A stretch of 64,000 nucleotides of DNA from the IMG/VR virus record IMGVR_UViG_3300033153_005459; one strand, written 5' to 3'. Shown one piece after another: positions 1 to 30,012 of the stretch (its first letter is position 1; each line of letters opens with the position of its first letter). The notes beneath the pieces are model-generated. The model was given only the letters and a program-made list of their open reading frames with translations, ran no database searches and was not told the DNA's origin. Source of the stretch: an uncultured virus (IMG/VR IMGVR_UViG_3300033153_005459) (Duplodnaviria; Heunggongvirae; Uroviricota; Caudoviricetes). The position numbers and the translations under genes are program-made.

Positions 1-67
1 CTTTGTGACGTTTGAGAGTTTGTTGCTGTGACTGGGTTGTTGTCTTCTGTCGGATTGTCATGAAAGC

Positions 68-96
68 TTGACAGTGGGGGTGGTGTGTGGTATGGT
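68..96 (+). promoter_or_regulatory. sigma70/sigmaA-type promoter heading the small-ORF array; probably leaderless
   Basis: TTGACA (68-73), 17 nt spacer, TGn-extended TATGGT (91-96); ATG at 103 follows after 6 nt. Confidence 0.75.
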
Positions 97-102
97 TGGG
101 TC

Positions 103-132
103 ATGACTGACCAGTTTGGAGAGTTCGCATGA
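103..132 (+). CDS. 9-aa leader micro-ORF MTDQFGEFA
   Basis: Starts at the predicted TSS; ends GGAGAGTTCGCATGA, overlapping the next ATG at 129. Confidence 0.4.
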   Translation: MTDQFGEFA

Positions 133-290
133 GCAGTGTTGGTGATTGGCGGCAGCAGCAGTATGGGTTTAGTTGGGATACCGATGAATTCAGGTTGTAT
201 GTTGATTCTCGACATCAGGTGTGGAAGGTGGCAAATTTCGATGTTGGTGATGTGCGTCAAGTTGTGATGCCTTGGTGGGAGTGGGCATGA
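129..290 (+). CDS. NWE-tail array protein (ends WWEWA)
   Basis: Hand translation MSSVGDWRQQQYGFSW...MPWWEWA, 53 aa, below ORF-track cutoff. Confidence 0.75.
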   Translation: MSSVGDWRQQQYGFSWDTDEFRLYVDSRHQVWKVANFDVGDVRQVVMPWWEWA

Positions 291-315
291 AGGTTGGCGA
301 GACCAGAAGGGTGGA

Positions 316-501
316 GTGCTCACATGGTGGGATTTCCATGACGATTTCGAATGCACGTTGTCTGTTCTTGTTGACCCTGACCGTTGTCTTTCGTTCTACA
401 GCATGGACACTTTGGCGCTCGGGTCGTCTTGGTTCATAGTCGTTCCAGCCTTGACCCAAGAGCGTGTACAGTATGGGTTTTCGAATTGGGAGTGGGCATG
501 A
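316..501 (+). CDS. NWE-tail array protein (NWEWA); start uncertain
   Basis: ORF track; the junction ATG at 287 is in a different frame. Confidence 0.65.
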   Translation: MLTWWDFHDDFECTLSVLVDPDRCLSFYSMDTLALGSSWFIVVPALTQERVQYGFSNWEWA

Positions 502-695
502 GCGGCTCAGTGCAGATTCGTAACGAGTGGACGACTACCGATTTGTTGTCTGCACCGGCTGGGGCTATCCAATGGATCGAAGAGTGGGATGATGCTGGCC
601 CGTTCAGAGTGGTATTCAGTTGGCGGTATCGGCTCGGTTGGATAGCGTCGTTTCATGGTGAGTTGTGGAACTGTAACAATTGGGAGTGGGCATGA
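498..695 (+). CDS. NWE-tail array protein (NWEWA)
   Basis: ATGA overlap; MSGSVQIRNEW...CNNWEWA. Confidence 0.8.
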   Translation: MSGSVQIRNEWTTTDLLSAPAGAIQWIEEWDDAGPFRVVFSWRYRLGWIASFHGELWNCNNWEWA

Positions 696-855
696 AACAG
701 ATTCGTAGCGTGTGGACGATTCACACCCAACCCCACAGTTACCCCGGTCAGTTTTCGGCTATCTGGTTCGAAGAGTGGGATGATGCTGGCCCGTCGGTTG
801 GGTAGTTATGTGTCGTGGGCTGATATGGGATTGTCCGAACTGGGAGTGGGCATGA
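692..855 (+). pseudogene. Frameshifted paralog of 498-695
   Basis: Shares QIR..WT and EEWDDAGP; about 31 nt missing relative to 498-695, which puts GW...NWEWA out of frame. Confidence 0.7.
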
Positions 856-1067
856 GCGTCGAGTTGGTTTACTTGGAGTGGCGAAGTACGCTGATGTGGG
901 AAGAGCAGAGCAAGAGGAAGTATCATTCGCTGGTTTTGTATATGGAGAATTACCGCCGTGAGGCTTGGCATCTACCAAAGTTCGATGAGGGTGCCGATGA
1001 ATGGTGGGTGGGCAATGGCAAGAAGTCTGCCGTCTTGATGTCTTGTATGAATTGGGAGGCGACATAA
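852..1067 (+). CDS. NWE-tail array protein (NWEAT)
   Basis: ATGA overlap at 852. Confidence 0.8.
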   Translation: MSVELVYLEWRSTLMWEEQSKRKYHSLVLYMENYRREAWHLPKFDEGADEWWVGNGKKSAVLMSCMNWEAT

Positions 1068-1516
1068 TGGCTCTTGTAGAAATTAAGGTATCTGGCATCG
1101 TTCCAGGGTCCCAGGTTTACATAGCTGAGATGCCTCTTCAGCAGCAGCTTATCAACACGCAAGCAGCGGGTTCTTCTGTTTCTGTGTGGCATCAAATCGT
1201 TGCAGATGTTGAAGTGATTATCAGAGTGCGTAAAGCCGCTAGTTCTCCTGAGATGATGCCTTTTGAAATGTATGGTACTGTCTCTGCGAAGCACGGGCTT
1301 GATGCCACGGTTTGTCAGGTCCATGATGAAATGTTCGGTGGTGACATGATTACCTTGAAAGCAGCACATCCATCCAACTCTTACTTCTACGGATTCATGA
1401 CGCAAACGGTTGACGGGAAGAAGTACGAGATAGGGTTTCATAAGGACGGTGGGACGGTCATCGGTGGTGAAGGTAATTTCTGTGATAGAGGACCAATAAG
1501 TTGGGAGTGGACGTGA
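1067..1516 (+). CDS. Long array member (SWEWT) with a virion-protein-like N-terminal domain
   Basis: TAATG overlap; ADVEVIIRVRK...PF...GL resembles the C-terminus of 47519-49231. Confidence 0.75.
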   Translation: MALVEIKVSGIVPGSQVYIAEMPLQQQLINTQAAGSSVSVWHQIVADVEVIIRVRKAASSPEMMPFEMYGTVSAKHGLDATVCQVHDEMFGGDMITLKAAHPSNSYFYGFMTQTVDGKKYEIGFHKDGGTVIGGEGNFCDRGPISWEWT

Positions 1517-1539
1517 CCATATGGTGGGAGTGGGCATGA
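1513..1539 (+). CDS. 8-aa micro-ORF MTIWWEWA (almost tail only)
   Basis: GTGA overlap at start, GCATGA junction at end. Confidence 0.5.
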   Translation: MTIWWEWA

Positions 1540-1766
1540 ACGTCACCACGGTGCAACCTCCGAGCACGACGATCACAATTGAATACGTTATGGGGCATAT
1601 CGTTGTCTGCGAAACCGACGATGCGGGCAGCGAGTTTTACCTTTGGTTGATTGATTGGGATGACTATGATGTTTCGGTCATGATTGGCGACGGGGAGCAT
1701 TTGCAATGGCTTGTGCCGCATATGTCAACCGAGTTGCGGTTCTGGAATTGGGAAGCGACGTATTAG
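1536..1766 (+). CDS. NWE-tail array protein (NWEATY)
   Basis: ATGA overlap; tail motif. Confidence 0.8.
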   Translation: MNVTTVQPPSTTITIEYVMGHIVVCETDDAGSEFYLWLIDWDDYDVSVMIGDGEHLQWLVPHMSTELRFWNWEATY

Positions 1767-1767
1767 C

Positions 1768-1944
1768 ATGGATGGAATCGAGTTCATAGTTTCAGGAACG
1801 TTGTGTGAGTGGACCGAATCTGTCCTCTTTGGTGCTTCGATTCGCGAGTGGTATGTGTGGCAGCATGTTGATGAAACGTTGAGGGTAGCTAAACGTGGGG
1901 GGAGTCCACCCATTGATCTTCCCGCAAACTGGTGGACGTCATGA
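1768..1944 (+). CDS. NWE-tail array protein (NWWTS)
   Basis: ATG 1 nt after previous stop; tail variant. Confidence 0.75.
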   Translation: MDGIEFIVSGTLCEWTESVLFGASIREWYVWQHVDETLRVAKRGGSPPIDLPANWWTS

Positions 1945-2168
1945 CCGAGGTGATAGGTGTGGGGTGGATAGCGTATGAGGACATAGGTACACTCATCTAT
2001 CGAGAGTTCTGGCATCAGAAGAAGGTGTGGATCACGATTCGTGATACAAGCTGGGATATGTGCGGCCCGATTGGTCCTACCATTGGTGAACGTAAGCTAA
2101 ACTCTCAACCGATACAGGGGTATCCTCATATGAGGATGCTAGGCTTTCCGAACTGGGAGTGGGCATGA
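1941..2168 (+). CDS. NWE-tail array protein (NWEWA)
   Basis: ATGA overlap; tail motif. Confidence 0.8.
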   Translation: MTEVIGVGWIAYEDIGTLIYREFWHQKKVWITIRDTSWDMCGPIGPTIGERKLNSQPIQGYPHMRMLGFPNWEWA

Positions 2169-2368
2169 ACGGCGTCACCTATGAAGTGAATCAGAAGATT
2201 GATGAAGGATGGGGCTTTGATGAGCACCAATGCGTATTGACAGAAAGCAGTGAAATCGCTTGGTGGCATTTGGTGAAGCCTTGGGGCTGCTGTGGGGTTG
2301 TTGTTGCGAGGGCTGGCGCTTCGGGGCCGTTTGGCTGGCCGGTATTTAAGAATTGGGAAATAGCATGA
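2165..2368 (+). CDS. NWE-tail array protein (NWEIA)
   Basis: ATGA overlap; tail motif. Confidence 0.8.
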   Translation: MNGVTYEVNQKIDEGWGFDEHQCVLTESSEIAWWHLVKPWGCCGVVVARAGASGPFGWPVFKNWEIA

Positions 2369-2526
2369 TCGGGAATTGGATCGCTGGGCTTGACGAATAC
2401 GCTTTGTCGGAATCCGGGGAGCAATACTGGTATCATCTGGTTCGTCCAGTTAGGAGATGCGGCGTTTATGTAGTTGTGAACGTTGAACCTCCTGAGGTTG
2501 GGTTTCTGAATTGGGAGTTGGGATGA
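2365..2526 (+). CDS. NWE-tail array protein (NWELG), paralog of 2165-2368
   Basis: Hand translation; LSESGEQYWYHLVRP..CGV versus LTESSEIAWWHLVKP..CGV. Confidence 0.75.
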   Translation: MIGNWIAGLDEYALSESGEQYWYHLVRPVRRCGVYVVVNVEPPEVGFLNWELG

Positions 2527-2690
2527 GCGTCGAATACAGACATCCTGAGCATCGTGGTGTGGTAGCTTGTTTCGTTGAGGACGAAGACTACTATGTGACT
2601 TTGCCGCCGTGGGGTGGCTGGCAACTCTGGGGACCCGGTGGTTTCGATTACTCCAACATGTGGAAGAACTGGGAGTTTGGATACGCATGA
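2523..2690 (+). CDS. NWE-tail array protein (NWEFGYA)
   Basis: Hand translation MSVEYRHPEH...WQLWGPGG...KNWEFGYA. Confidence 0.75.
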   Translation: MSVEYRHPEHRGVVACFVEDEDYYVTLPPWGGWQLWGPGGFDYSNMWKNWEFGYA

Positions 2691-2950
2691 GTCTGCAAAT
2701 CACAACGAAACGCAAGCGACCCAAGATTGGTATATGGGAGAAACTAGAGATCGGGATTATACGTTGGCGCACCGGTTTGGTCATGATTCACATCTATGAC
2801 GACGACTATACTGGAGCACCTGTTGCGACCAAATACAGGGGTACAACTATCTCTGAAAGAGATCCACATTGGGTTGTGAGCAACCTAAACACGGCTATTC
2901 CTCTGGGTGAATCGAACCAGCGAGGCCCCGAGAATTGGGAGTGGGCATGA
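2687..2950 (+). CDS. NWE-tail array protein (NWEWA)
   Basis: ATGA overlap; tail motif. Confidence 0.8.
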   Translation: MSLQITTKRKRPKIGIWEKLEIGIIRWRTGLVMIHIYDDDYTGAPVATKYRGTTISERDPHWVVSNLNTAIPLGESNQRGPENWEWA

Positions 2951-3192
2951 AACCTAATCCTAGACAGTCTGCCCATCCGAACGTTTGGACAACGGCTTTC
3001 GAATATTCGGCAAGTACATATGTGCCTGCCAAATGGCAGTACGGCCAGTTTGTGATGCTGCTGTTTGATACGTTGGACACATATGTGATTCAGGATGGTT
3101 CTTCTGAGGTATTTCAATCCAGATGGAAAGTGATAAAGGAAGGCGCTTCGTGGAATGAAGCTGTTCACGTTTCGAACTGGGAATGGGCATGA
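2947..3192 (+). CDS. NWE-tail array protein (NWEWA)
   Basis: ATGA overlap; tail motif. Confidence 0.8.
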   Translation: MKPNPRQSAHPNVWTTAFEYSASTYVPAKWQYGQFVMLLFDTLDTYVIQDGSSEVFQSRWKVIKEGASWNEAVHVSNWEWA

Positions 3193-3398
3193 CCAAAATG
3201 AGCGACATAAACAACCCGTGGAAACGTGTTTGGGTCGTCAACCCCAACCAAGTTACGCTTTTGACTTGGCAAGAGCTTGACGGTGTGCTAAAGTTGTATT
3301 GGACTGGTGAATGGCAAATCTTCGGACCTGTTCCAACTAACGGCAGTTCGCTGCGTCCGGTGATGAAACCGCCATCCAATTGGGAGATCGCAACATGA
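3189..3398 (+). CDS. NWE-tail array protein (NWEIAT)
   Basis: ATGA overlap; tail motif. Confidence 0.8.
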   Translation: MTKMSDINNPWKRVWVVNPNQVTLLTWQELDGVLKLYWTGEWQIFGPVPTNGSSLRPVMKPPSNWEIAT

Positions 3399-3423
3399 GA
3401 ACGCAGAAGGTTAGACTCTGCCA

Positions 3424-3457
3424 GGGACCGCCAGAACGACAAATGTCTGGCGGTCCC
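3424..3457. repeat. Perfect 12-bp inverted repeat inside the array
   Basis: GGGACCGCCAGA-N10-TCTGGCGGTCCC; no U-tract. Confidence 0.8.
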
Positions 3458-3458
3458 G

Positions 3459-3653
3459 ATGTCTAAGAAACGTATGGACATGCCTGTCCGATTTACCGTT
3501 TTTGATAGGCAGGCTATTGGTTGGGTTCAGGAAGAACTGAAAACGATTGGGCCTTGGGGTGTTATGTACTACATGCGCAACCACGAAACACGAGTGCATG
3601 AGGTGGGCCATAGTGGTTGGCGTATCGCTCGCAACTGGGAAGTCGCATCATGA
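3459..3653 (+). CDS. NWE-tail array protein (NWEVAS)
   Basis: ORF track; tail motif. Confidence 0.75.
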   Translation: MSKKRMDMPVRFTVFDRQAIGWVQEELKTIGPWGVMYYMRNHETRVHEVGHSGWRIARNWEVAS

Positions 3654-3781
3654 CCGGTGCAGAGACTAGCAGAGCCAAGGCTCACGAATTGTTGAATTTG
3701 AGCACTGGCTGGTACGTGTACGATTGCGTCTTCGATGAAAACGGCCAGGTGTGGTACAAGACAGCGAGAAAGGATAACTAA
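3650..3781 (+). CDS. Small hypothetical protein within the array, lacking the tail
   Basis: ATGA overlap; MTGAETSRAKAHELLNL...ARKDN, 43 aa. Confidence 0.5.
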   Translation: MTGAETSRAKAHELLNLSTGWYVYDCVFDENGQVWYKTARKDN

Positions 3782-3783
3782 TC

Positions 3784-4020
3784 ATGACTGCATGGAAAGG
3801 GCACCGAACGTTGTATTGGGAGGACGGCTCTATCACGGGAATGCCTGGTCCAGTTTTTGTGGAAGCAGACGTTGAAGGCGAAGTGCAAGACGATGTGCTC
3901 ATAGAACTACACGAGACCAACGAAGCGTGGATTGTGACTCTGCCGGACTTGGTACCTTGGCTCATTACCCGTCTGGGTGATCACACGGTCAACGGGTTCT
4001 CTTGGTGGGAGTGGGCATGA
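3784..4020 (+). CDS. NWE-tail array protein (WWEWA)
   Basis: GAAAGGA RBS; tail motif. Confidence 0.8.
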   Translation: MTAWKGHRTLYWEDGSITGMPGPVFVEADVEGEVQDDVLIELHETNEAWIVTLPDLVPWLITRLGDHTVNGFSWWEWA

Positions 4021-4250
4021 GCGTAGGGAAAATGTCATTCATCTCGGAGATGCCTGACCGATGGTCTATCATGTCTGGCAAAACCGATCATTTTGTTTGG
4101 GACAAGGAAAGGTTCCGGCTGGTTATCACACCGGAATATCCGGTCATGACCATCTCTGATCACAGAGACAGAAAGGCTGGCGATGTGCTCGATTACGATT
4201 CGTTCATTGTGAAGAACTGGGAATGGGCATGTCGCATATGTGGGAAGTGA
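4017..4250 (+). CDS. Array protein with extended tail (NWEWA-CRICGK)
   Basis: Junction reads GCATGT instead of GCATGA. Confidence 0.75.
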   Translation: MSVGKMSFISEMPDRWSIMSGKTDHFVWDKERFRLVITPEYPVMTISDHRDRKAGDVLDYDSFIVKNWEWACRICGK

Positions 4251-4411
4251 ATCTTTTTGGAACCGCTTTGAGGTGGACTGAACCTGATCTCAGCGCTTCG
4301 GTTCTGGTCGGACACGATTGGTGGCAAATCTATGGACCCGTGTCGACACGTTCGGACATATTCCAACCACCTTATCCCGGTTTCACAAATTGGGAGTGGA
4401 TCTGTCGATAG
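4229..4411 (+). CDS. NWE-tail array protein (NWEWICR)
   Basis: Starts at the junction ATG; contains WQIYGP. Confidence 0.75.
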   Translation: MSHMWEVNLFGTALRWTEPDLSASVLVGHDWWQIYGPVSTRSDIFQPPYPGFTNWEWICR

Positions 4412-4418
4412 AGAAGGT

Positions 4419-4712
4419 GTGACCCATGATCCTGTTCCGAGAATCATTCAAGCATACAGAGGCGGCGCTGCTCTAGTTTCTTACTGTCCAGTTGGCGGGG
4501 GTCACAATCTCGTTGTTGACAAGATCACTGAAGACGGAGTAGACTGGTGTGTAGCAGCGTGTCTTGAATGCACGTATTATGAGAAGGGTAGATCGTTCGC
4601 TGAAGTTCTGATTGGTGCTGCGGCGAAGATCCTGAAGAATTGGGAATTTGGATGGCCGGAAGATGGGGAATTTCTAGAACCAGTTGGACGGGTGGACACG
4701 GCACGTATCTAG
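4419..4712 (+). CDS. Array protein, Cys-containing, with extended tail (NWEFG-W...)
   Basis: GTG start (uncertain); junction reads GGATGG. Confidence 0.65.
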   Translation: MTHDPVPRIIQAYRGGAALVSYCPVGGGHNLVVDKITEDGVDWCVAACLECTYYEKGRSFAEVLIGAAAKILKNWEFGWPEDGEFLEPVGRVDTARI

Positions 4713-4882
4713 TCTGGCAGGATACTGAGCCGTCGTGTAGCTTGACTCTCACGTGTGTGTCTGCTAATCTACATAAGGAGTATCCCGGCTATTTCGAAAT
4801 GTTGGATATGGACGAAGACGCTACTAGCCTAGTCATATGGGGCCGTGAGGCTGGCCATCGTAACTGGGAGTTTTGCTGGTGA
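4652..4882 (+). CDS. NWE-tail array protein (NWEFCW)
   Basis: Starts at the junction ATG 4652. Confidence 0.75.
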   Translation: MAGRWGISRTSWTGGHGTYLVWQDTEPSCSLTLTCVSANLHKEYPGYFEMLDMDEDATSLVIWGREAGHRNWEFCW

Positions 4883-5091
4883 CCGTTCTGCAAGTCGAGA
4901 TGGAAGGGTTCTTTTGCAGGTTCTCTGAGGCTGACGTTCAGGACGGGAAACCGATCGGTTGGTGCTTGAGGGCACGTCGTGGAATCAAACCAATGGGCGG
5001 CTTGACGCAGGCTTGGGGCAACACGATCGAGCGATTCACGCCAGACGACGACAATTGGTCGCCGGTGCCAAACGGATGGGAACCAACGTGA
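4879..5091 (+). CDS. NWE-tail array protein (GWEPT)
   Basis: GTGA overlap. Confidence 0.75.
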   Translation: MTVLQVEMEGFFCRFSEADVQDGKPIGWCLRARRGIKPMGGLTQAWGNTIERFTPDDDNWSPVPNGWEPT

Positions 5092-5273
5092 AACGGAAAC
5101 GCACGAAACGACTTCAAAAGATACATGAGTCACAGCCGTTGACGATGTGGCGTGACGACACAGCCGCTCTATGTATGATTTATGGCTATGAGGACCTGTC
5201 CGGTTCGACAGTAATCGTTCACAACAACTACGGAATGGTGTTTTGCATAGGCAACAACTGGGAGCCAGCATGA
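5088..5273 (+). CDS. NWE-tail array protein (NWEPA)
   Basis: GTGA overlap. Confidence 0.75.
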   Translation: MKRKRTKRLQKIHESQPLTMWRDDTAALCMIYGYEDLSGSTVIVHNNYGMVFCIGNNWEPA

Positions 5274-5482
5274 TTGAATTTGCTGCGAAGGCGAGATGGC
5301 AGCGTTGGCATGAAATCGAGGGCGATTGCTATATCGTGTCGTTCTGGGATGATCCCACACTCGATTATCTTCAAGGCGAAGTGCATAAGCGATATGTTCA
5401 TGGCACCTACGTCGCTCAAGGACTTTCGGTAATAAAACCACCAGCCGATCTCGTGTGGTTCATGAACTGGGAAGCGACATGA
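5270..5482 (+). CDS. NWE-tail array protein (NWEAT)
   Basis: ATGA overlap. Confidence 0.8.
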   Translation: MIEFAAKARWQRWHEIEGDCYIVSFWDDPTLDYLQGEVHKRYVHGTYVAQGLSVIKPPADLVWFMNWEAT

Positions 5483-5709
5483 ATCCAGAATTTGAAAAGC
5501 TGTGCAACAACAATGCTATCACTTTCACCATCACGAAATCGCGTATCGTGTTTTGCGAATACTTTTTCCAAGGCGACTCCGGTTGGGGAGCAAACGAACC
5601 GAGACGTATTCGTTTGGATCTGTCGTTGGACGATAGCAACATCTGCGTGTACACCCGGTACATTTCGATTCCTCATTCGATGCCTGCTAATTGGGAAGGA
5701 GCGATATGA
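5479..5709 (+). CDS. NWE-tail array protein (NWEGAI)
   Basis: ATGA overlap. Confidence 0.8.
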   Translation: MNPEFEKLCNNNAITFTITKSRIVFCEYFFQGDSGWGANEPRRIRLDLSLDDSNICVYTRYISIPHSMPANWEGAI

Positions 5710-5942
5710 GCGTACAATTCGTTTATGCTCACTCTCTCACTCCCCATACACACCAACACATTCCGGGTGGTGTTCGTAGAAGAGGTGCTTATCATGGTTG
5801 GACTGACCGTGAAGGTTGGCATCTCTTCTACTACCCAGCAAGAAAGTCAGGGCCTCCGATGTTTTTTGATGGACCTGTATGGGAGTTCGCTTCGCCTGCA
5901 TTCGTTGAGTCGATTGAATTGTTGAATTGGGAAACAGCATGA
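5706..5942 (+). CDS. NWE-tail array protein (NWETA)
   Basis: ATGA overlap. Confidence 0.8.
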   Translation: MSVQFVYAHSLTPHTHQHIPGGVRRRGAYHGWTDREGWHLFYYPARKSGPPMFFDGPVWEFASPAFVESIELLNWETA

Positions 5943-6112
5943 ATTGGAGCTACAACTTCAACAACGGGCACATTTGGTGTAACGAGTTAGACTCTGAGGA
6001 ACGAGAATTCGAATTGGAGCACAACTTCAACACGGGCAGAACCACAACCTTTCAATGGCCAGACAAATCCAATGGGGTCATCTACCTCGCCAACAACTGG
6101 TCGCCGACATGA
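5939..6112 (+). CDS. NWE-tail array protein (NWSPT)
   Basis: ATGA overlap; tail variant. Confidence 0.75.
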   Translation: MNWSYNFNNGHIWCNELDSEEREFELEHNFNTGRTTTFQWPDKSNGVIYLANNWSPT

Positions 6113-6315
6113 TCAAATACGTCAACTCGATATATTCAACCCAATGGTTAGAATCACCGCCACGTTACACCAGTCGAGAACGCGAGTGGAAACTCATTCA
6201 AGAATACAGGGTTTACTCAATGAAACATCTTCGCCACCACAATCATCTCTTTGTCTATTCCGATCACGACGGGTTTAGTTCTGACGTTCCACGCAACTGG
6301 GAGATCGCATCATGA
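6109..6315 (+). CDS. NWE-tail array protein (NWEIAS)
   Basis: ATGA overlap. Confidence 0.8.
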   Translation: MIKYVNSIYSTQWLESPPRYTSREREWKLIQEYRVYSMKHLRHHNHLFVYSDHDGFSSDVPRNWEIAS

Positions 6316-6479
6316 TCTCTTGGACCTACGGCATTGACCACATTCACATTACAGAACCGCAAGGCCGCGGCTTCTGGCTTTTCGACAAAGGCTTTTACCG
6401 CGGCGTGCCTCACATGCTCGATGATTCACCCGGCAACGAGTTGTATCTTTTTTTCAATAACTGGGAAACAGCACGATGA
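6312..6479 (+). CDS. NWE-tail array protein (NWETAR)
   Basis: Hand translation MISWTYGIDHIH...FFNNWETAR. Confidence 0.75.
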   Translation: MISWTYGIDHIHITEPQGRGFWLFDKGFYRGVPHMLDDSPGNELYLFFNNWETAR

Positions 6480-6652
6480 AGCAAAATCTTGGAGAAGACT
6501 GGTACCAGTGGTGCGAGGAAAACTACACTGTTCATTACATTTGGGGTCCTTGGAAGTACGTCGTCGGCAGGCTCTACGTCGTTGGACCACCAGGACCACC
6601 AAGACCAAATGCTGGTGGTCGCGACCTACCCTGTAATTGGGAAGCAGCATGA
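6476..6652 (+). CDS. NWE-tail array protein (NWEAA)
   Basis: Hand translation MKQNLGEDWYQW...LPCNWEAA. Confidence 0.75.
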   Translation: MKQNLGEDWYQWCEENYTVHYIWGPWKYVVGRLYVVGPPGPPRPNAGGRDLPCNWEAA

Positions 6653-6852
6653 TCCAAGTAATCAGACACAGCGCAGTAACCGACACACACCATTGGACAG
6701 AGAACAACGACACCGGTCAAGTCTGGAAACTTTGGGCAGGCCCACGCTGGTTTTCCTGCGACGATGACGAACTGAAGGAGACCCGAGTAACAGTTCACGG
6801 CGAAGGTCACGGATGCAGAATCTATCTCCCTCTCACATGGGAAGTAACATGA
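6649..6852 (+). CDS. NWE-tail array protein (TWEVT)
   Basis: ATGA overlap. Confidence 0.75.
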   Translation: MIQVIRHSAVTDTHHWTENNDTGQVWKLWAGPRWFSCDDDELKETRVTVHGEGHGCRIYLPLTWEVT

Positions 6853-7070
6853 ATTCCTTTCTCACCAGCTTCCCTTGGTACGTGACTCTCCACGAAGAAA
6901 CAAAACTGGCATACGACACCGACCCAAGCTCACACAACTGGACTATCAGAATGATGAACCTTTATCCGCACGCCCTTTCTATCCGACACGTAGAGTACAC
7001 AACTTCACAACGAGACGGCAAGTCAGGATTCAGCGGCTTGCCTTGTAGCTGGGAAGCAGCGTACTTATGA
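6849..7070 (+). CDS. NWE-tail array protein (SWEAAYL)
   Basis: ATGA overlap. Confidence 0.75.
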   Translation: MNSFLTSFPWYVTLHEETKLAYDTDPSSHNWTIRMMNLYPHALSIRHVEYTTSQRDGKSGFSGLPCSWEAAYL

Positions 7071-7303
7071 TCGAATGCAAATCAGCAGACACATGGATGT
7101 CAGTATACGGAGAACCAGGCGACACGTACACCATCGTCTACCTCCATCAGCCCGAACTCTACGGCCTGTTCATGATAGCTCGGGGATGGCCCCCTCTACT
7201 CTGGCGACAACGCAACAGAAGACACACCAACGGCTACGTCCACACCCACACACCTCTAGGCAGATGGCACCTACCAACCGGATGGGAACCAGCAACAGCG
7301 TGA
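7067..7303 (+). CDS. NWE-tail array protein (GWEPATA)
   Basis: ATGA overlap. Confidence 0.75.
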   Translation: MIECKSADTWMSVYGEPGDTYTIVYLHQPELYGLFMIARGWPPLLWRQRNRRHTNGYVHTHTPLGRWHLPTGWEPATA

Positions 7304-7470
7304 CTTGCAAACTCGACTACAACCGCAAAGTCCACAGCCTCTTCTTCCTTGACATCGAAGACAATATCACGTATGCTCTAGAATACCGTTTCAGATACAC
7401 TACACGTTGGATCATCCGGGGACGCTACGGATCAGTGATGGCCCACGTAAAGAACTGGGAACTCGCATGA
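7300..7470 (+). CDS. NWE-tail array protein (NWELA)
   Basis: GTGA overlap. Confidence 0.75.
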   Translation: MTCKLDYNRKVHSLFFLDIEDNITYALEYRFRYTTRWIIRGRYGSVMAHVKNWELA

Positions 7471-7610
7471 GACAAGACCACACCACCGAAGCCTACTACT
7501 TCAGACAGGACGCTATCGTGGTCGCCGTCCCCTACAACCGCAGAACCACACGCCTACTAATCAACTACCCATACAAGATGCCCCTCAACTGGGAACTAGC
7601 CACACCATGA
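7467..7610 (+). CDS. NWE-tail array protein (NWELATP)
   Basis: ATGA overlap. Confidence 0.75.
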   Translation: MRQDHTTEAYYFRQDAIVVAVPYNRRTTRLLINYPYKMPLNWELATP

Positions 7611-7798
7611 ACGCAGACACCGTAGAAGAAGACTACTCATACCGCTGGGTCAGATGGAGCCACGCCTACGGCAGCGTAGCACTCGTAGCCATATGGCGAT
7701 GCGACGACTACTTCCCACACGGCAGAGTAGGCGTAAGGATCACCGAAGGCATCAACGCATCCGAAGCATGGTTCAACAACTGGGAACCAGCAACATGA
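7607..7798 (+). CDS. NWE-tail array protein (NWEPAT)
   Basis: ATGA overlap. Confidence 0.8.
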   Translation: MNADTVEEDYSYRWVRWSHAYGSVALVAIWRCDDYFPHGRVGVRITEGINASEAWFNNWEPAT

Positions 7799-7995
7799 TA
7801 GACGAAGGAAACGTAGGAGTAGACTACTCACGCCACTGGATACGATGGCGTTACGCATCAGGTCTAGTAGCACTCATAGCACTATGGTACGCCGACGACG
7901 ACTACTTCACCGTTCCCGTTCAGCTAGGCGTAAGCATCACCAATGGCCACGAAGACGTATACCTCACCAACTGGGAACCCGCATACACATGCTAG
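7795..7995 (+). CDS. NWE-tail array protein (NWEPAYTC), paralog of 7607-7798
   Basis: Shared DYS..W.RW..A.G.VAL.A.W..DDYF...GV.IT.G. Confidence 0.8.
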   Translation: MIDEGNVGVDYSRHWIRWRYASGLVALIALWYADDDYFTVPVQLGVSITNGHEDVYLTNWEPAYTC

Positions 7996-8165
7996 AATAC
8001 AGAGGCTTCGCATTCCAAGAACACGACCTATCAGAAGAAACCCCCACCGCAATCATATTCCTATGGCTACCTTCTTGGTCATCAACCAAAGAGCGATGCC
8101 CCTGGATCAACGGCGACAGAGCAGGCGAACCGCTACGGTTACGCAACTGGGAACCAGCATGGTAA
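7989..8165 (+). CDS. NWE-tail array protein (NWEPAW)
   Basis: ATG 7989; junction reads GCATGG. Confidence 0.75.
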   Translation: MLEYRGFAFQEHDLSEETPTAIIFLWLPSWSSTKERCPWINGDRAGEPLRLRNWEPAW

Positions 8166-8217
8166 ACCCTCAATGCCCCCCTGCTAGTTATACAAAATTA
8201 TTTGAAAGGAGCTACTG

Positions 8218-8460
8218 ATGGTGTTAACGTGGGGGACTCACTTGACGGCCGGTTACTTTCGTGCGTTCACGACTAATGAGCGAACACTGACGATGACTCA
8301 TGCAGAGACGGTGGCTGCACTGAAGAGGTATCCCTTTGCGTTGTCTTGGTATCAGGAGGTTGATGGGGAGGATGAGGGCGTGTATACTTTGAATTCGTTT
8401 CATCATGACGGCGACCATTGGGATCATCGTGAGATCGCACGGAATTGGATGTTGGCATGA
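8218..8460 (+). CDS. NWE-tail array protein (NWMLA)
   Basis: GAAAGGAG RBS; tail variant. Confidence 0.8.
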   Translation: MVLTWGTHLTAGYFRAFTTNERTLTMTHAETVAALKRYPFALSWYQEVDGEDEGVYTLNSFHHDGDHWDHREIARNWMLA

Positions 8461-8672
8461 ACTGGGATGATGCGCCTGAGACAATGAAGTGGACTTTGAA
8501 CTTCTCCTACGTTCCGTGGGATCGTCATATCTACATTTACGAACGCACCGAGTCTGCCTCATGGGATTTGATTTACTTCATGCGTCGTCAGTCTTGGGTT
8601 ATTCAGAGCGCCATCGACAAGTCGAATCAGATTGGTGAATATCAGCTTCCGAAGAATTGGGCACCTGCATGA
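8457..8672 (+). CDS. NWE-tail array protein (NWAPA)
   Basis: ATGA overlap at both ends. Confidence 0.8.
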   Translation: MNWDDAPETMKWTLNFSYVPWDRHIYIYERTESASWDLIYFMRRQSWVIQSAIDKSNQIGEYQLPKNWAPA

Positions 8673-9514
8673 ACAAGATCCGTGACCTGATAGATCGCAG
8701 ACCGACGCTCTCGTTTGAGTTCTTTCCACCGAAGACAGCCAAGGCTGTGGTGACTCTACGGGAGACTGTGGATCTTCTTGAGAACGCCGACCCTGATTTC
8801 GTGTCGGTCACCTACGGTGCCGGTGGTAGCACACGTGACGCCACCCGAGACACGGTGGTCGAATTCATCGAGGACCGAGACTTCCCAACGATGCCGCATC
8901 TTACTTGTGTCGGGCACAGCTACACTGAGGTCAAGGATCTGATCGACTACTACCAGGCCCACGGTGTGTGCAACATACTTGCGCTGGCTGGCGATGCACC
9001 CGACGACTATCATCCCGACCCCACCGACTTCCGTTACGCTATCGAACTCGTGGAGATGTTACAGTACCAATCCGATCTGTGTGTTGGTGTTGCCGCGTTT
9101 CCTGAGGTTCACCCTCGTTCCGAGAGTCGAGAGTCTGACCGGAGGCATCTTGCCGACAAGCTACGGATGGCTGATTTCGGCATCACGCAATTCTTCTTCG
9201 ACTGTGACGACTACTTCCGTATGGTCGATGAATTGCAGGCACTCGGCTGCGACACACCTATTCTTGCTGGTGTCATGCCTGTTGTCAACCCGATCGGTGT
9301 TCGACGTTTCGCTGAGATGAACGGGTCAGCGGTCGATGAAGCTCTATGGAATCGTATTGACGCAGCCAACCCTGACGAACGACTTCAAATAGCGGTCGAC
9401 ACGGCGGTCCATCAAATCTCCCGTCTCATCGACGGCGGCGCTCCCGGCGTGCATCTCTACACTCTCAATCAGTCCGCTGCGTCGATTCGGATATGTGAGC
9501 AGATACCCAGATGA
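8669..9514 (+). CDS. metF: 5,10-methylenetetrahydrofolate reductase (auxiliary metabolic gene)
   Basis: SFEFFPPKT, DFVSVTYGAGGS, HLTC, ILALAGD, FPEVHP, ITQFFFD, GVHLYTLN motifs. Confidence 0.95.
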   Translation: MNKIRDLIDRRPTLSFEFFPPKTAKAVVTLRETVDLLENADPDFVSVTYGAGGSTRDATRDTVVEFIEDRDFPTMPHLTCVGHSYTEVKDLIDYYQAHGVCNILALAGDAPDDYHPDPTDFRYAIELVEMLQYQSDLCVGVAAFPEVHPRSESRESDRRHLADKLRMADFGITQFFFDCDDYFRMVDELQALGCDTPILAGVMPVVNPIGVRRFAEMNGSAVDEALWNRIDAANPDERLQIAVDTAVHQISRLIDGGAPGVHLYTLNQSAASIRICEQIPR

Positions 9515-9723
9515 CCGTGAGACGCTCTGTAAGCCGCTCTGTTGAGCGCAGACGCTTAAGACGCCTAGCGACACGTGTAGCTGCCAAAGATGGCCTCAGC
9601 CCCGGTATAACGCCGCTTCCTTACCATGTGGACTATTGGGAAGCGAACATTGTCCGAGACGCTCTGACGCGACATTTAAACTGGGAAACAGTCAGGCGGT
9701 TAGACGCTCAACAGCGTCCTTGA
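9511..9723 (+). CDS. Small basic protein with NWET near its C-terminus
   Basis: ATGA overlap with metF. Confidence 0.55.
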   Translation: MTVRRSVSRSVERRRLRRLATRVAAKDGLSPGITPLPYHVDYWEANIVRDALTRHLNWETVRRLDAQQRP

Positions 9724-10354
9724 CCCCAGCCCAGTCGGTACGGATGATCCGTGACCACAATATGGCGGGATCGCCAGCACCTTCCATCGCTTTTGTCCAC
9801 GCGTCGGCATGAACGATAGGATCGTTCCACGGGCGAGAGTGACATACAGCGGGACGACCAGTACGAGCGAAGTCCACAACATTCTCGATACGATCTTCAA
9901 TACAGATATCGAGATCCAGCGATAGTTTGTACTCGTGGCCGAATCGTAGAGTCACAAGAGGCACAGCATACATGCTGAGCCAGCCCATCTTCTGAAGAGC
10001 GCAGTCGTGGAACGTTGAATCGCCGTAGCCCGATCCCCAAGGGTTCGTTACGACATGAATCTCGTTTCCTGCAAGATGTAGGGCGTCTACACCCTCCAGC
10101 GAACCCTCGATCACGTCCATTCCTAGCCAAACACCCTCGTCGGTAGCCGTCCTGACCGCCTTATCGAACTGTTTGAAGTCCAACTTCCAGTCTTCGCGGT
10201 ACATTGACCAGCAGGTTGACGGGTGTGTGGCGATATGTTCGACGTGTTCTTTGGAGAGTTCTAGTCGTTTTTCTCCATTTGCGACGATCCAGTCCTGCAT
10301 TCCACTGGCGAAATGTGTCAAAACCCCGTCCATATCTAACAAAATCTTGCTCAT
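9692..10354 (-). CDS. HAD-family 5'(3')-deoxyribonucleotidase (NT5C-like)
   Basis: N-terminal ILLDMDGVL, plus HVVT, K..WL, IEDR, RPWN. Confidence 0.8.
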   Translation of the reverse strand: MSKILLDMDGVLTHFASGMQDWIVANGEKRLELSKEHVEHIATHPSTCWSMYREDWKLDFKQFDKAVRTATDEGVWLGMDVIEGSLEGVDALHLAGNEIHVVTNPWGSGYGDSTFHDCALQKMGWLSMYAVPLVTLRFGHEYKLSLDLDICIEDRIENVVDFARTGRPAVCHSRPWNDPIVHADAWTKAMEGAGDPAILWSRIIRTDWAGVKDAVERLTA

Positions 10355-10376
10355 ATTAGCTCCAAATAGCTCTGGT

Positions 10377-10628
10377 TTAGCTTGTTTTTGTGGCTTTTAG
10401 CTCTAAAGCAACTTGAATTAGCTCACGTCCAACCTGTTCTGCGACCTCTGGAGTCATCAAAATGTTCGTTTTGCCCCTCTGGGAGCGTGTCGGAAGCTGA
10501 ATTACGAGCTGAATTTGGTCGCCACGGACTGCTTGAGTCGGTTCTGGCGACCGCCAGGCATCAATTCTGATGTCAGTTTGTGTATCGTCCTCGTCTAGGG
10601 TTCTCCAGCGGGGGCGATTGCGATCCAT
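10377..10628 (-). CDS. Hypothetical protein
   Basis: Co-oriented with neighbours in a minus-strand operon. Confidence 0.6.
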   Translation of the reverse strand: MDRNRPRWRTLDEDDTQTDIRIDAWRSPEPTQAVRGDQIQLVIQLPTRSQRGKTNILMTPEVAEQVGRELIQVALELKATKTS

Positions 10629-10653
10629 GTGACCACGTTAGCAGGTATTCGCG

Positions 10654-10878
10654 TCACCAATCTGGCGCAACTACGGAATTTCCTAGTTCCCAGTTCCGAA
10701 ACAGCTTGCTGGAGTCGACCATCACGGAACGATCTTCGAAATGCACCACTCCCCACCATGCGTTGTTAGGGTTTTGGTTCCAGAACATCCTAACCCCGTA
10801 TTCAAACGCTCCGAGGGTGACGATGCGGGCTGGACCACGGTTTTCGAACCATGCGAACAGCGGATACTCTTCCGTCAT
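10654..10878 (-). CDS. Dispersed NWE-tail protein (NWELG plus extension)
   Basis: ATGA overlap with 10875-11048. Confidence 0.7.
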   Translation of the reverse strand: MTEEYPLFAWFENRGPARIVTLGAFEYGVRMFWNQNPNNAWWGVVHFEDRSVMVDSSKLFRNWELGNSVVAPDW

Positions 10879-11048
10879 AGAGCTACTTCCCAATTACGCC
10901 ACGTAAGGAAGCGTGCTTCACCTTTGTCGTTGATTAAACCCGGTCTACGATTGCCATTATCTGCAATTTCGAACTTGAAGTCGTCTTCTGTCCATTCTAC
11001 GATACAGCCTCCAAGCAAAAGATGATCAATGTAGAAATTTACGGTCAT
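10875..11048 (-). CDS. Dispersed NWE-tail protein (NWEVAL)
   Basis: Hand translation MTVNFYIDHLLLGGCIVEW...TWRNWEVAL, 57 aa. Confidence 0.75.
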   Translation of the reverse strand: MTVNFYIDHLLLGGCIVEWTEDDFKFEIADNGNRRPGLINDKGEARFLTWRNWEVAL

Positions 11049-11054
11049 CTCAGT

Positions 11055-11083
11055 AGTTTACATGCAATCAATCAGTTTGTCAA
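11055..11083 (-). promoter_or_regulatory. Leaderless sigmaA-type promoter
   Basis: Minus strand TTGACA-N17-TAAACT-N6-ATG (11048). Confidence 0.75.
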
Positions 11084-11085
11084 CC

Positions 11086-11114
11086 TTGCCGACTGAGGTT
11101 TTATGTGGTACGCT
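11086..11114 (+). promoter_or_regulatory. Divergent sigmaA-type promoter
   Basis: TTGCCG-N17-TACGCT with TGn extension. Confidence 0.5.
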
Positions 11115-11144
11115 GAGTTATCGTTGGATCTTCCTTCCTTCGTC

Positions 11145-11351
11145 ATGCCTCGAAAGTATCACAACATGATTCTGAACCGAACCGCAAGTGGAAGATACGC
11201 TTTGAATCTCTTTGAACACTGGAACAAGGACGGTGATGAGTTCGTGGCTGAATTGTGCGTCTGGCCCAATGGAAGGATGTTGCTTTCCCGACCTGATGAT
11301 TTCTGGGATGCAACGCCGACTTTCATCCCTCCTAATTGGGAACCGATCTGA
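11145..11351 (+). CDS. Dispersed NWE-tail protein (NWEPI); start uncertain
   Basis: ORF track; tail motif. Confidence 0.7.
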   Translation: MPRKYHNMILNRTASGRYALNLFEHWNKDGDEFVAELCVWPNGRMLLSRPDDFWDATPTFIPPNWEPI

Positions 11352-11364
11352 TACACTAGACGGA

Positions 11365-11598
11365 ATGGGACGAAGAAAGAAGACCGACGCCGAGAAGAAC
11401 AAGACAGCAAAGGCTATTGATGCCAAGTTTGTTGGTGGCCCCAAGGACGGCACGACGTTGCAGATTATAAATCCTCCACCGGAGCATATTCGGCTGGTTG
11501 CGGGCGTGAAAGATTGGTGTACCTACGAGTGGGACACTAATCTTAGACTGTACCGTCATATCGGGGACGTGAGAATCAAGGAACTACATGAAACGTAA
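11365..11598 (+). CDS. Hypothetical phage protein
   Basis: FVGGPKDG motif typical of small phage proteins. Confidence 0.65.
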   Translation: MGRRKKTDAEKNKTAKAIDAKFVGGPKDGTTLQIINPPPEHIRLVAGVKDWCTYEWDTNLRLYRHIGDVRIKELHET

Positions 11599-12067
11599 AT
11601 GGCGGTGGCCGTTTCTGGTTGAACCGTACTATTACGTCTCTCCGCCATACACATACACCTACGCTCCAACGTTTGACCCCAAACCGCGTCCTGAACCGTG
11701 GCGCAAACACGAACTAGCAAAACGACAAGCGATTTACCTGTTGCCTGTGTCGTTCTGTGAGCTGCTTGCTGATGATCAGCAAGTCCACAACAACCGCAAG
11801 AAAACACCCAACAAGATAGCATGGTTACGGGAGTCCATTTCGGAAGAAGGCTTGAAACGGCCGTGTATTTTGGTCCTAGACTCCGTTGGCAACCTTCGTT
11901 ACCATGATGGGTACCATCGACTAACAGCGATTCAACAAATCGAAGATTTCACTCACATTCCGTGCATCCTGCAACACTCCACCGGCAGGATTCGTTCCTA
12001 TGGTCGACCCTTGCATCAAATCACCGAAATTATACTGGAGTTGGTATCTGCCGATAATAAGGCATGA
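11588..12067 (+). CDS. ParB/sulfiredoxin-like domain protein
   Basis: LRESISEEGLKRP...DGYHRLTA. Confidence 0.75.
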   Translation: MKRKWRWPFLVEPYYYVSPPYTYTYAPTFDPKPRPEPWRKHELAKRQAIYLLPVSFCELLADDQQVHNNRKKTPNKIAWLRESISEEGLKRPCILVLDSVGNLRYHDGYHRLTAIQQIEDFTHIPCILQHSTGRIRSYGRPLHQITEIILELVSADNKA

Positions 12068-12600
12068 AGCACCGCCTGTCTCCTGTCCTTGCAAGGGCAA
12101 TCAATCTTGAACAGTACGAAACTGTTCAGCTTGACGGAGACCTAGAGTTTTATGTGGCAGACTCTGTAGAGCATCGAAAAAGCGGGCTTGCGGGCCTAGC
12201 TGCATTGGACAAGGCGGGCATGATCTTCGTGTATGACGTGGACGTAAACCACGCTTTCACGATGTCAGCAATGGAGTTCGACCTCAATGTCGCTTTCTAC
12301 GACGCTGAGGGCACCTTGATCGTCACCAAGACCTGCATGGCGGGTTCTGGGGCTGTTCATGCTCCGAGGCCGTACAGGTACGTTGTGGAGGTTCCTACAG
12401 GGAACAGTCTTCCTTCTGATGTAAGCGCTTTGAAGAAGAAGAAGAAGAAGAAGAAGTCAGCTTACGCTCAAGAACTTGCGGTACACTACCATCAGGATCT
12501 AACCCATGATGGCATTCTGATTCATTCTCACGAAGTAGAAGTCCCTGATCACACACATCCAGGGTTTGGTGCAGGATACTTGGCTAAGGAGAGCATGTGA
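12064..12600 (+). CDS. DUF192-family protein with a poly-Lys tract
   Basis: VAD...R..GL...GMIFVY...M..M.FDL.VAFYD..G...YVVEV. Confidence 0.75.
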   Translation: MKHRLSPVLARAINLEQYETVQLDGDLEFYVADSVEHRKSGLAGLAALDKAGMIFVYDVDVNHAFTMSAMEFDLNVAFYDAEGTLIVTKTCMAGSGAVHAPRPYRYVVEVPTGNSLPSDVSALKKKKKKKKSAYAQELAVHYHQDLTHDGILIHSHEVEVPDHTHPGFGAGYLAKESM

Positions 12601-12645
12601 GTTCCTGCCTCATGTGATACCCGGAATGGGGTACAATGAAGAAGG

Positions 12646-12864
12646 ATGAGCGGAACGAGCAAGTATGACGATTACGACTTAGTGGGCTACGACCTGACGA
12701 TGATGTCAGAGTTGGCTAAAGAAGCCGGAATCAATGAAGGACTTGCGTTCTCTGAAGGTTATGTGGTAAGATTCTATTTCGTTAATCCTGAGGTGATGAG
12801 TGCCGGTCAACCGGTCCACGTTAAGGAATTGGTGAGACTCCCAGGATACTGGGAGTATACTTGA
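12646..12864 (+). CDS. Dispersed tail-variant protein (YWEYT)
   Basis: ORF track; ends TACTGGGAGTATACTTGA. Confidence 0.65.
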   Translation: MSGTSKYDDYDLVGYDLTMMSELAKEAGINEGLAFSEGYVVRFYFVNPEVMSAGQPVHVKELVRLPGYWEYT

Positions 12865-13037
12865 CACAGAAGGTGATTATTTCGATCTACTTCAATTTGG
12901 TTGAAACTTTTAGTTTGCAGCGACACACTGGAAGACCCCCCGGACGGATGCTTCTACGCATAGAACATCCTCAAACAGACGGGAAACGGAAAGTGTAGCA
13001 AAGCGCAAACGTTGATGATAGTGTAATTCATAGATTA

Positions 13038-13076
13038 GAAGAAGCCCTTACATCTTGTAGGGGTTTCTTCGCGTTT
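13038..13076 (+). terminator. Intrinsic terminator-like hairpin
   Basis: GAAGAAGCCCTTACA-TCT-TGTAGGGGTTTCTTC. Confidence 0.65.
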
Positions 13077-13080
13077 GGAG

Positions 13081-13110
13081 TTGACAAGCTTCATTGACGT
13101 GTGCTATGCT
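13081..13110 (+). promoter_or_regulatory. sigmaA-type promoter, near-identical to 21624-21653
   Basis: TTGACA-N18-TATGCT; GTG start at 13118. Confidence 0.75.
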
Positions 13111-13117
13111 GAGGTCC

Positions 13118-13333
13118 GTGGCCTATTTGCATGACAAGACGTATCATCTAGAGCAGCTAAGTCACGTGAACGCTACGATGGATCGTCTAGAAGCATCCCG
13201 TTACGCTCACGTTCGACAAGCACGTCTTGGCGGAGCCACTTGGCAGGAGATTGCTGATCAGCTTGGCATTACGCGTCAGGCTGCACATATACGATGGTCT
13301 AAAAGGATAAATGATGGCTCGCGAATTAACTGA
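13118..13333 (+). CDS. Small HTH DNA-binding protein
   Basis: ARLGGATWQEIADQLGITRQAAHIRW. Confidence 0.8.
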   Translation: MAYLHDKTYHLEQLSHVNATMDRLEASRYAHVRQARLGGATWQEIADQLGITRQAAHIRWSKRINDGSRIN

Positions 13334-13661
13334 AGCAACCGATTTCGAGAAGATGTCTGAGGCTTTGGACAGCATGGGTGACACCGGCGTGCAGTTGATG
13401 ATGGACTTCATGAACGAAGTTTGTACCCGGCTTTCCCGCATCGAAAGAGATCAGGAACGACAGATTCAAGCGATCAAGAATCTTGTGCCGTCCATTGGCG
13501 GGTCCCACCCAGACCGTATCACCACGGACGAGTTGTACCGAACAGGGAAAGGTCTTGGTGCCATCAAAGAAGACCATCGCGACGACATGTACAGGGAGAT
13601 CCTGGCCAAAATGGCTACTTACGAGCCTGATCCTAAGCTGATTCTTCACACCAACACCTAA
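13311..13661 (+). CDS. Hypothetical protein
   Basis: ORF in operon; AAGGA upstream. Confidence 0.65.
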   Translation: MMARELTEATDFEKMSEALDSMGDTGVQLMMDFMNEVCTRLSRIERDQERQIQAIKNLVPSIGGSHPDRITTDELYRTGKGLGAIKEDHRDDMYREILAKMATYEPDPKLILHTNT

Positions 13662-13897
13662 TGCGTTTGCCTGAGCGTCGTTGTACGCACGCTTACGGCA
13701 TGATCTACGAAGATGACTTCTGTGTCTGTAAGCACTGTGAACAGTCGTGGACGATGATGAAAGGCTGGAAACCGATCGTGAATGGTCGCATCTACGATCC
13801 AGAGTTCAAGCCGAAGAAAAGCTCATACAGGGTCAAACCAGCAAACGTCAAAGCAAAGGGAAGCGTGCGCAAGATCCAAAGGCGTAGACGAGCATGA
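13661..13897 (+). CDS. Hypothetical Cys-containing basic protein
   Basis: TAATG overlap; CxH...CxxC. Confidence 0.6.
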   Translation: MRLPERRCTHAYGMIYEDDFCVCKHCEQSWTMMKGWKPIVNGRIYDPEFKPKKSSYRVKPANVKAKGSVRKIQRRRRA

Positions 13898-14345: not shown

Positions 14346-14348
14346 CCG

Positions 14349-24696: not shown

Positions 24697-24697
24697 G

Positions 24698-24889: not shown

Positions 24890-24890
24890 T

Positions 24891-25703: not shown

Positions 25704-25710
25704 GGACAGC

Positions 25711-29178: not shown

Positions 29179-29183
29179 GCTTA

Positions 29184-30005: not shown

Positions 30006-30012
30006 GAGAAAC

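Follow-up and report, generated by a model that had tools for sequence, protein, structure and literature searches.

A C-terminal peptide shared by some 48 small phage proteins is selected at the amino-acid level and may be a docking tag

In a 64,000-nt stretch of an uncultured tailed-phage genome (IMG/VR record IMGVR_UViG_3300033153_005459; the whole stretch is called the window below), we find 48 copies of a peptide with the consensus Phi-[P/F/Phi]-x-N-W-E-Phi-[A/T/G] at or near the ends of short open reading frames (ORFs). Selection on this peptide, the tail, acts with near certainty on amino acids and not on DNA. The reading that we prefer, at a probability of about one half, is that the tail serves as a short docking peptide at the C terminus of some 48 predicted early phage proteins, which are small and change rapidly.

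Number and distribution of the tails

By Pfam, the window, which is part of a tailed-phage genome, contains ribonucleotide reductase, glycosyltransferase, and metF genes. Tails were collected from frames in which WE or NW lies close to the stop, together with TGGGAR sites. Four were added by hand (841, 1525, 4641, and 10692), and nine candidates were excluded as shadow frames, long core genes, or poor fits (20999, 34820, 35476, 63404, 9637, and 9682 on the plus strand; 46493, 61954, and 4473 on the minus strand). The resulting 48 tails are distributed very unevenly: 41 lie in 129–8672, five farther along the plus strand, and two on the minus strand. WE or NW was present in the last 10 codons of 42/111 plus-strand open-frame ends in 1–15000, compared to 5/237 in the rest of the plus strand and 4/471 on the minus strand. 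At one mismatch or fewer, TGGGARNNNRCATGA occurs 29 times versus 1.64 expected. The tail repeat is thus confirmed as real and far above chance. A matrix built from the 48 tails, and circular for these 48, found just five further sites of at least 9 bits, none of which terminates a long ORF.

The plus-strand junction at 484–501, one of the 48, reads AAT TGG GAG TGG GCA TGA and encodes NWEWA-stop, with an SD-like GGGAG at 488–492, 5 nt upstream of the next unit's ATG at 498, exactly as the first-pass annotation had read it. The Asn-Trp tails that it named elsewhere were also found (NWWTS ending at 1944, NWSPT at 6112, NWMLA at 8460, NWAPA at 8672, and NWIVAA at 14079). NWEWA as a definition of the motif is present but too short, since the real extent is codons −4 to +3 around the Trp codon (position 0). 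In this assembly the upstream unit is out of frame: the frame that begins at its coupled ATG (287) runs into a stop at 439, and NWEWA is in frame only with a GTG at 316. This state is probably a lesion like that of unit 692 (below). Neither reading of the unit, from ATG 287 or from GTG 316, matched in an exact protein look-up.

Selection on the tail

Among the 48 copies, Asn occupies position −1 in 39 and Glu position +1 in 43, so that Glu is absent from five. Codon −4 is mostly L/G/I/V, codon −2 is free, codon −3 encodes P in 17 copies, F in 11, L in 4, other non-polar residues in 15, and H in 1, codon +2 is restricted to W, P, A, L, V, T, I, F, G, and Y, and codon +3 encodes A in 31, T in 8, and G in 4. 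The tail ends 0 to 3 residues from the stop in 45/48 copies (0 residues in 27, 1 in 12, 2 in 5, and 3 or more in 4 of all 48); the other three tails are non-terminal, being extended by 6, 8, and 19 residues.

The synonymous variation proposed at first pass is present throughout the set: Asn is encoded by AAC in 21 copies and AAT in 18, and Glu by GAA in 24 and GAG in 19. Third positions are less conserved than first and second ones, with 1.34/1.26/0.46 bits across the Asn codon and 1.50/1.36/1.01 bits across the Glu codon. Counted as minor alleles over both codons, transitions make up 37/82 third positions and 2/164 first and second positions, and third-position transversions are zero. Such Y/R degeneracy might reflect G-U wobble pairing, and we therefore tested the free codons −3 and +2. 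With base columns shuffled, 12.9 polar or stop codons were expected at −3 and 15.0 at +2, versus 1/48 and 0/48 seen. The exclusion is confined to coding frame 0 and absent from the two other frames over the same bases. Because the copies have common ancestry, p values that assume independent copies are too small; counting distinct codons, which lessens this effect, gave 20 codons at +2, none of them polar (hypergeometric, 2.6e-6), and p = 1.4e-5 at −3. The first two bases at −3 are CC in 17 copies, TT in 13, CT in 2, and TC in none, and information there is 0.35/0.43/0.04 bits across the three base positions. At +3, Ala is GCA in 16/16 copies when it is the last codon, since the ATGA overlap forces it; where further codons follow, all four Ala codons occur.

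The per-codon information, the transition counts, and the polar-residue exclusion thus all agree with the earlier proposal that the peptide matters. One argument offered for it, that the Trp codon is kept in the upstream reading frame, proved weak, since any ORF that terminates at the overlapping TGA necessarily shares the frame of the motif; this argument and one from 3-nt spacing were dropped because coupling forces both. The third base of the Glu codon tracks local strand skew. The GC skew of the plus strand changes from +0.29 (1–2000) to −0.14 (6001–8000) inside one co-directional array, and third positions in the tails go along with this change, a flip that may mark blocks of different origin or inversion history.

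A nucleotide element (start-associated or SD-like, RNA-pairing, or a recombination site) with the peptide as a by-product is largely refuted and, in our estimate, very improbable. Near-identical copies of 18 to 21 nt in the left half of the array, anti-SD pairing there that resembles core genes (median of −6.8 kcal/mol), a Y and R degeneracy compatible with G-U wobble, and an extra unit on another contig that suggests exchange at tails would all suit such an element. However, wobble predicts G in place of Glu's A as well, yet GGR occurs in 0/48 copies, and the exclusion of polar residues goes beyond what base columns explain. TGGGAG is kept in only 19/48 copies, 34/38 AAYTGGGAR sites are tails, and a nucleotide matrix revealed no out-of-frame or intergenic copy within the array. 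Nor does any junction fold beat shuffles (0/41 at z < −2), and the start spacing takes the values 11, 14, or 17 nt.

The start-associated sequence (SAS) of cluster K mycobacteriophages is the closest precedent for such an element. It is a 13-bp nucleotide consensus with AGGAG, 3 to 7 bp from the start, that recurs in one orientation just 5′ of non-structural genes, overlaps the SD position, and sometimes includes the upstream stop (PMC3203893). The tail shares the proximity to starts but lacks a fixed AGGAG-type consensus, and its conservation tracks codons, reaching the chemistry of free positions. The earlier statement that a pure ribosome-binding element like SAS is insufficient is thereby borne out.

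A degron is also unlikely, though a little less so than a nucleotide element. The tail would then deliver units to a host protease, making them short-lived or jamming the protease. Known C-terminal degrons are non-polar or small at the end, as are the last two positions of the tail; in contrast, its best-conserved residues lie 3 to 7 positions internal, Glu is near-invariant, and the very last residue is free to vary across 0 to 3 added residues.

Architecture of the array

The main array (129–8672, plus strand) is a chain of about 40 genes, made up of short ORFs that carry 41 tails. Ahead of it lie a promoter-like site of the sigma70/sigmaA type (68–96, plus strand; TTGACA-17-TATGGT with extended TG, a consensus match only) and a leader ORF of nine codons (103–132, plus strand) that ends E-F-A-stop and has an ATGA overlap with the first unit. 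The ATG at 103 sits 7 nt past the −10 hexamer, and from this spacing the leader ORF is probably leaderless. Along the chain (103–9723), 36/48 junctions have the 4-nt ATGA/GTGA overlaps typical of termination-reinitiation. Apparent gaps are bridged by ORFs of 8, 23, and 19 codons, all on the plus strand: a mini-ORF that is nearly the tail alone and is coupled at both ends (1513–1539), an untagged ORF that maintains the overlap chain (3395–3466), and another untagged ORF (8159–8218), with a canonical AAGGAG also present at the next start (8218). The last tagged unit is ATGA-coupled to an untagged metF (methylenetetrahydrofolate reductase; 8669–9514, plus strand; PF02219, E = 8.6e-76), which would therefore come from the same ribosome relay. 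The ORF coupled after metF (9511–9723) contains two degenerate, non-terminal tail look-alikes, YWEAN and NWETV.

Measured from the Trp codon, most copies have a start codon (ATG or GTG) at 11, 14, or 17 nt, and 4/48 tails have none within 8 to 25 nt. Pairing to the anti-SD sequence, for which we used a short motif, reached −5 kcal/mol or lower at 16/22 starts in the left half of the array and 4/19 in the right half, compared to 27/36 core genes and 23% of random sites; the medians are −6.8, −4.2, −7.05, and −2.8 kcal/mol, respectively. Since it is strong in the left half but decays in the right half, the SD-like signal is optional. Junctions are dual-coded in the left half, and the right half relies mostly on overlap; of the dual code proposed at first pass, the peptide part therefore stands throughout and the SD part in the left half only. 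Reliance on overlap agrees with the variable role of intragenic SD sequences in termination-reinitiation at ATGA/TGATG overlaps (PMC6728339).

Taken together, promoter-like sites are about as common as chance predicts (19 versus 16.5 expected), and we used just the three perfect TTGACA sites with a start 7 to 8 nt past the −10. The second belongs to two coupled tagged units on the minus strand (10657–11048; NWEVAL, and NWELG followed by eight residues), with the site at 11083–11055 (minus strand) and an ATG 7 nt past its −10. The third (13081–13120) has an in-frame GTG 7 nt past the −10, ahead of an HTH gene. To judge from these sites, early genes may generally have leaderless starts. Short leaderless first ORFs are reportedly common in mycobacteria.

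Satellite tagged units on the plus strand lie at 11103–11351 (NWEPI, no overlap with the next gene), 12646–12864 (YWEYT, uncoupled), and 13894–14345 (two units, NWIVAA and NWEAAY, the second facing a convergent gene). Two of these ends had been cited as tails that persist where no gene is coupled downstream; the claim is right for 14345, and also true of 12864, but fails for 11351, where the next gene has an in-frame ATG at 11365. A lone tagged unit (24698–24889, plus strand; NWEWM) lies within a glycosyltransferase cluster; the next copy is 10 kb away. That cluster (23959–31951, just before the terminase region) holds glycosyltransferase, RmlD-like, sulfotransferase, and methyltransferase genes, which suggests virion or DNA glycosylation. 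A DUF192 gene (12064–12600) contains an AAG repeat (12426–12463) that encodes a run of eight lysines.

The position of the tail, the final eight residues ahead of a coupled stop, could also mean that it acts as a nascent peptide in the exit tunnel, slowing termination and so making re-initiation on the overlapping ATG efficient along the 40-gene chain. Mini-ORFs that maintain the relay and the four stop losses, in each of which the position of the downstream ATG is unchanged, are in line with this explanation. Arrest peptides, however, require an exact register, and the distance from tail to stop is variable (see above). Tails are also present where there is no downstream gene, and the ATGA coupling of other genes needs no such peptide (PMC6728339). 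We consider this explanation improbable, if slightly less so than a degron.

Bodies of the tagged units

The bodies are 8 to 149 codons long, with a median of 67.5 amino acids, and contain no stop in 2530 codons, compared to 150 and 133 stops in the other two frames. Their composition is protein-like, with 5.1% Trp and 5.1% Tyr. BLAST among 43 bodies yielded two clear pairs, and a third pair with the intact form of unit 692. One clear pair lies at 7607–7995 (plus strand), where the second member has lost its overlapping stop; unit 692 (692–855, plus strand), which has an internal deletion here, is a paralogue of the unit at 498–695. The pN/pS values of the three pairs are 0.31/0.38, 0.30/0.26, and 0.44/0.85 (31 to 51 codons each); over these few codons, two pairs have pN near pS and one is under purifying selection. 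Leave-one-out body profiles were significant at p < 0.05 for 4/45 bodies, compared to 2/45 reversed controls (combined p = 0.007), and a Phi-W-x-[ED] pattern, found post hoc, occurs in 8/41 bodies versus 3.6 expected. The bodies thus appear mostly unrelated, perhaps with a faint common origin.

The longest unit (1067–1516, plus strand; 149 amino acids, SWEWT) weakly resembles the C-terminal domain of a virion-module gene without a tail (47519–49231; 28% identity over 57 amino acids, pairwise E = 0.002), and no homologue of its product was found outside this phage. Homologue searches of the units returned essentially this phage's own proteins (9/11 matches in one search, the other two being HYR-repeat proteins). 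Pfam matched 0/40 array ORFs at E = 0.01, Pfam plus PHROGs gave single weak matches only for 39 units, ESM Atlas returned nothing usable, PDB had no match for units, and AlphaFold2 models of two units had pLDDT values of 52 and 48. Neither tRNA nor Rfam searches gave a match. Tandem DNA amplification of the MIRU type was rejected, since only the tails repeat, at a spacing of 134 to 449 nt, and the bodies between copies are unrelated.

The main rival to a docking tag is that the units form one extremely diverged family of small Trp-rich beta-sheet proteins, with the tail as the final turn and strand in a fold common to them all. The P-x-[N/G]-W element resembles a structural turn, and the narrow size range, the three paralogue pairs, and the weak body signal in common are what a common fold would give. 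There is also a weak match (11 residues, E = 1.4) between the tail profile and the first strand of the WW domain in 9w5c. WW domains have a first strand L-P-x-G-W-E followed by a half with Y/F-x-N...T-x-W-x-x-P. A WW domain proper, whether whole, split, or permuted, was rejected: there was no Pfam WW match among 39 units at E up to 10, and the second-half pattern was present in 1/41 next-ORF starts versus 0.6 expected. Against a common fold, 41/45 bodies score no better than their own shuffles, tails are found on ORFs as different as 8 codons and 149 amino acids, and pN close to pS in 2/3 paralogue pairs implies little constraint for a shared core. We regard a common fold as possible, though clearly less likely than docking.

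Strain variation and relatives

Two public runs, both sediment metagenomes, contain contigs with matches of at least 99% to the array, which extend across several junctions and leave 1–1000 uncovered; one of these runs is possibly the source sample itself. Strains were compared by exact look-ups of 30 proteins against other contigs of this phage. Unit 692 has a continuous tagged form of 64 amino acids on four other contigs and is broken only on the contig matching the window. The overlapping stop of unit 7795, lost in the window, is present on one other contig, and on another this unit continues into an additional one, which the window lacks and which has its own tail, P-P-Q-W-E-A-A-Y. Because of these differences between contigs, we conclude that the array gains and loses units. 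A crossover inside a tail could have produced the fusion, which is seen in one protein and could come from an assembly error.

The capsid gene (39774–40727) has 18 IMG/VR relatives at 47 to 100% identity. A pattern search of 15 related phage records, mostly fragments, revealed no array; one of them is the complete 163-kb genome of a relative whose capsid protein is 68% identical, the closest record (77%) is without the early region, and the nearest record corresponds to window positions 16849–41814 only. With the neighbor genes NT5C and phosphoesterase as queries, no relatives were found. The closest relative has one uncoupled gene of 86 amino acids (3046–3306) that ends F-V-P-L-T-W-E-I-C-stop. 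This look-alike end is kept in 4/4 homologues, three of them at 61 to 65% identity, and of the 13,978 frame ends outside the window it is one of two that reach 12 bits; the gene body has no similarity to any unit. We treat it as a lead that could be due to chance. Near its N terminus, the capsid protein has K-N-W-D-D-P-A-W, with the Asn nearly invariant in 16 relatives; the likeness to tails is probably chance. A complex prediction for the capsid protein and the tail gave no answer (score 0.00).

In IMG/VR, the exact 18-mer had no match, a two-copy pattern matched seven loci that were all rejected as chance on inspection, and a three-copy pattern had none; each pattern scan covered a single spacing window. 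The three-copy pattern matched 30 stretches in GTDB, which were also rejected: motif copies were counted in all 28 loci, and the three inspected closely are repeats of short period in which no long ORF ends in the motif. One GTDB repeat locus is presumably RCC1-like. Among the GTDB matches, a Spirochaetia MAG contributed densely repeated tracts, and a Stappiaceae MAG contributed tracts that resemble satellite DNA and may be eukaryotic contamination.

The context of metF relatives, together with the three TTGACA sites with starts 7 to 8 nt past the −10, points to an actinobacterium as the probable host. The closest metF genes are in contigs of 65 to 72% G+C, beside purH, folD, and icd; this gene order and the best FolD model are actinobacterial. 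The closest cellular relatives of the phage metF are ~50% identical to it.

Discussion

Under the docking explanation, host RNA polymerase would produce a leaderless mRNA from the promoter-like site at 68–96. Ribosomes would load at the 5′ ATG and re-initiate along the chain at ATGA overlaps, aided by an SD sequence wherever the Glu codon is GAG. Every product would then show the same turn and short strand peptide at its end, and a single partner with a hydrophobic pocket would bind it, with the result that many different bodies gather at a single site or a host protein is overwhelmed. In about two thirds of this reading, the partner would be a host or phage protein of the early infected cell, and capsid loading would account for the other third. 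The presence of the tail on an eight-codon mini-ORF and on a body resembling a virion-protein domain argues for a tag, as does its retention without coupling (12864 and 14345) and on the lone gene of the closest relative. The weak common signal of the bodies and their shared Trp/Tyr richness, as expected of a single diverged fold, argue against it, and so do the long extensions in 3/48 tails, the four stop losses that leave the ATG where it was, and the loss of Glu in 5/48.

Two known systems are similar in kind. The T-even internal proteins (Ip1 to Ip3 and variants) are described as small, highly diverse, of non-essential type, and having only a short terminal peptide (CTS) in common (PMC3012670, PMC12373910). 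A terminal peptide common to otherwise dissimilar small proteins is found here too, but theirs is N-terminal and ours C-terminal, and we noted no sequence likeness between the two. T4 has three such proteins at two loci with the prohead core as partner, in contrast to the 48 ORFs and coupled chain found here. Targeting peptides of family 1 encapsulins are short, C-terminal, and address different cargo to one binding site (PMC10960027); that system, however, is cellular, with enzyme cargo of a single type per operon, while capsid binding by the tail is only a candidate. By analogy, the tail may work like the T-even CTS or an encapsulin targeting peptide, being a member of neither.

Two further comparisons concern the array itself. 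Ordinary termination-reinitiation places no eight-residue constraint on the upstream protein and was studied in gene pairs (PMC6728339), compared to a chain of ~40 genes here. Pseudomonas phage LUZ7 has a cluster of 29 small genes that, like this array, is specific to its lineage, lies at a genome end, and consists of small orphan genes; the phage is unrelated, and PMC3715699 reports no shared motif or coupling. A full-text search of mostly open-access literature found no array of small phage proteins with a common C-terminal motif. By these comparisons, the shared-terminal-peptide arrangement would be known in kind, with the C-terminal coupled array appearing unusually large.

A more speculative extension, which we hold only tentatively, is that the array serves as a protein library that shuffles itself without an integrase: from one leaderless mRNA, a ribosome relay would make about 40 miniproteins in similar amounts, the tail would bring each of them to the same partner, their bodies would drift nearly freely, and units would be gained and lost at tail DNA. 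If this is true, C-terminal address tags would be a general, undescribed phage strategy against host defenses.

The junctions show that the upstream peptide can keep in place a repeat with the look of a ribosome-binding site, and the array offers a natural 40-step coupled operon for the study of re-initiation. Small early phage genes are mostly orphans, and one partner of an eight-residue peptide would explain this whole block. Finding that partner would test C-terminal tags as a general means of aiming variable phage proteins.
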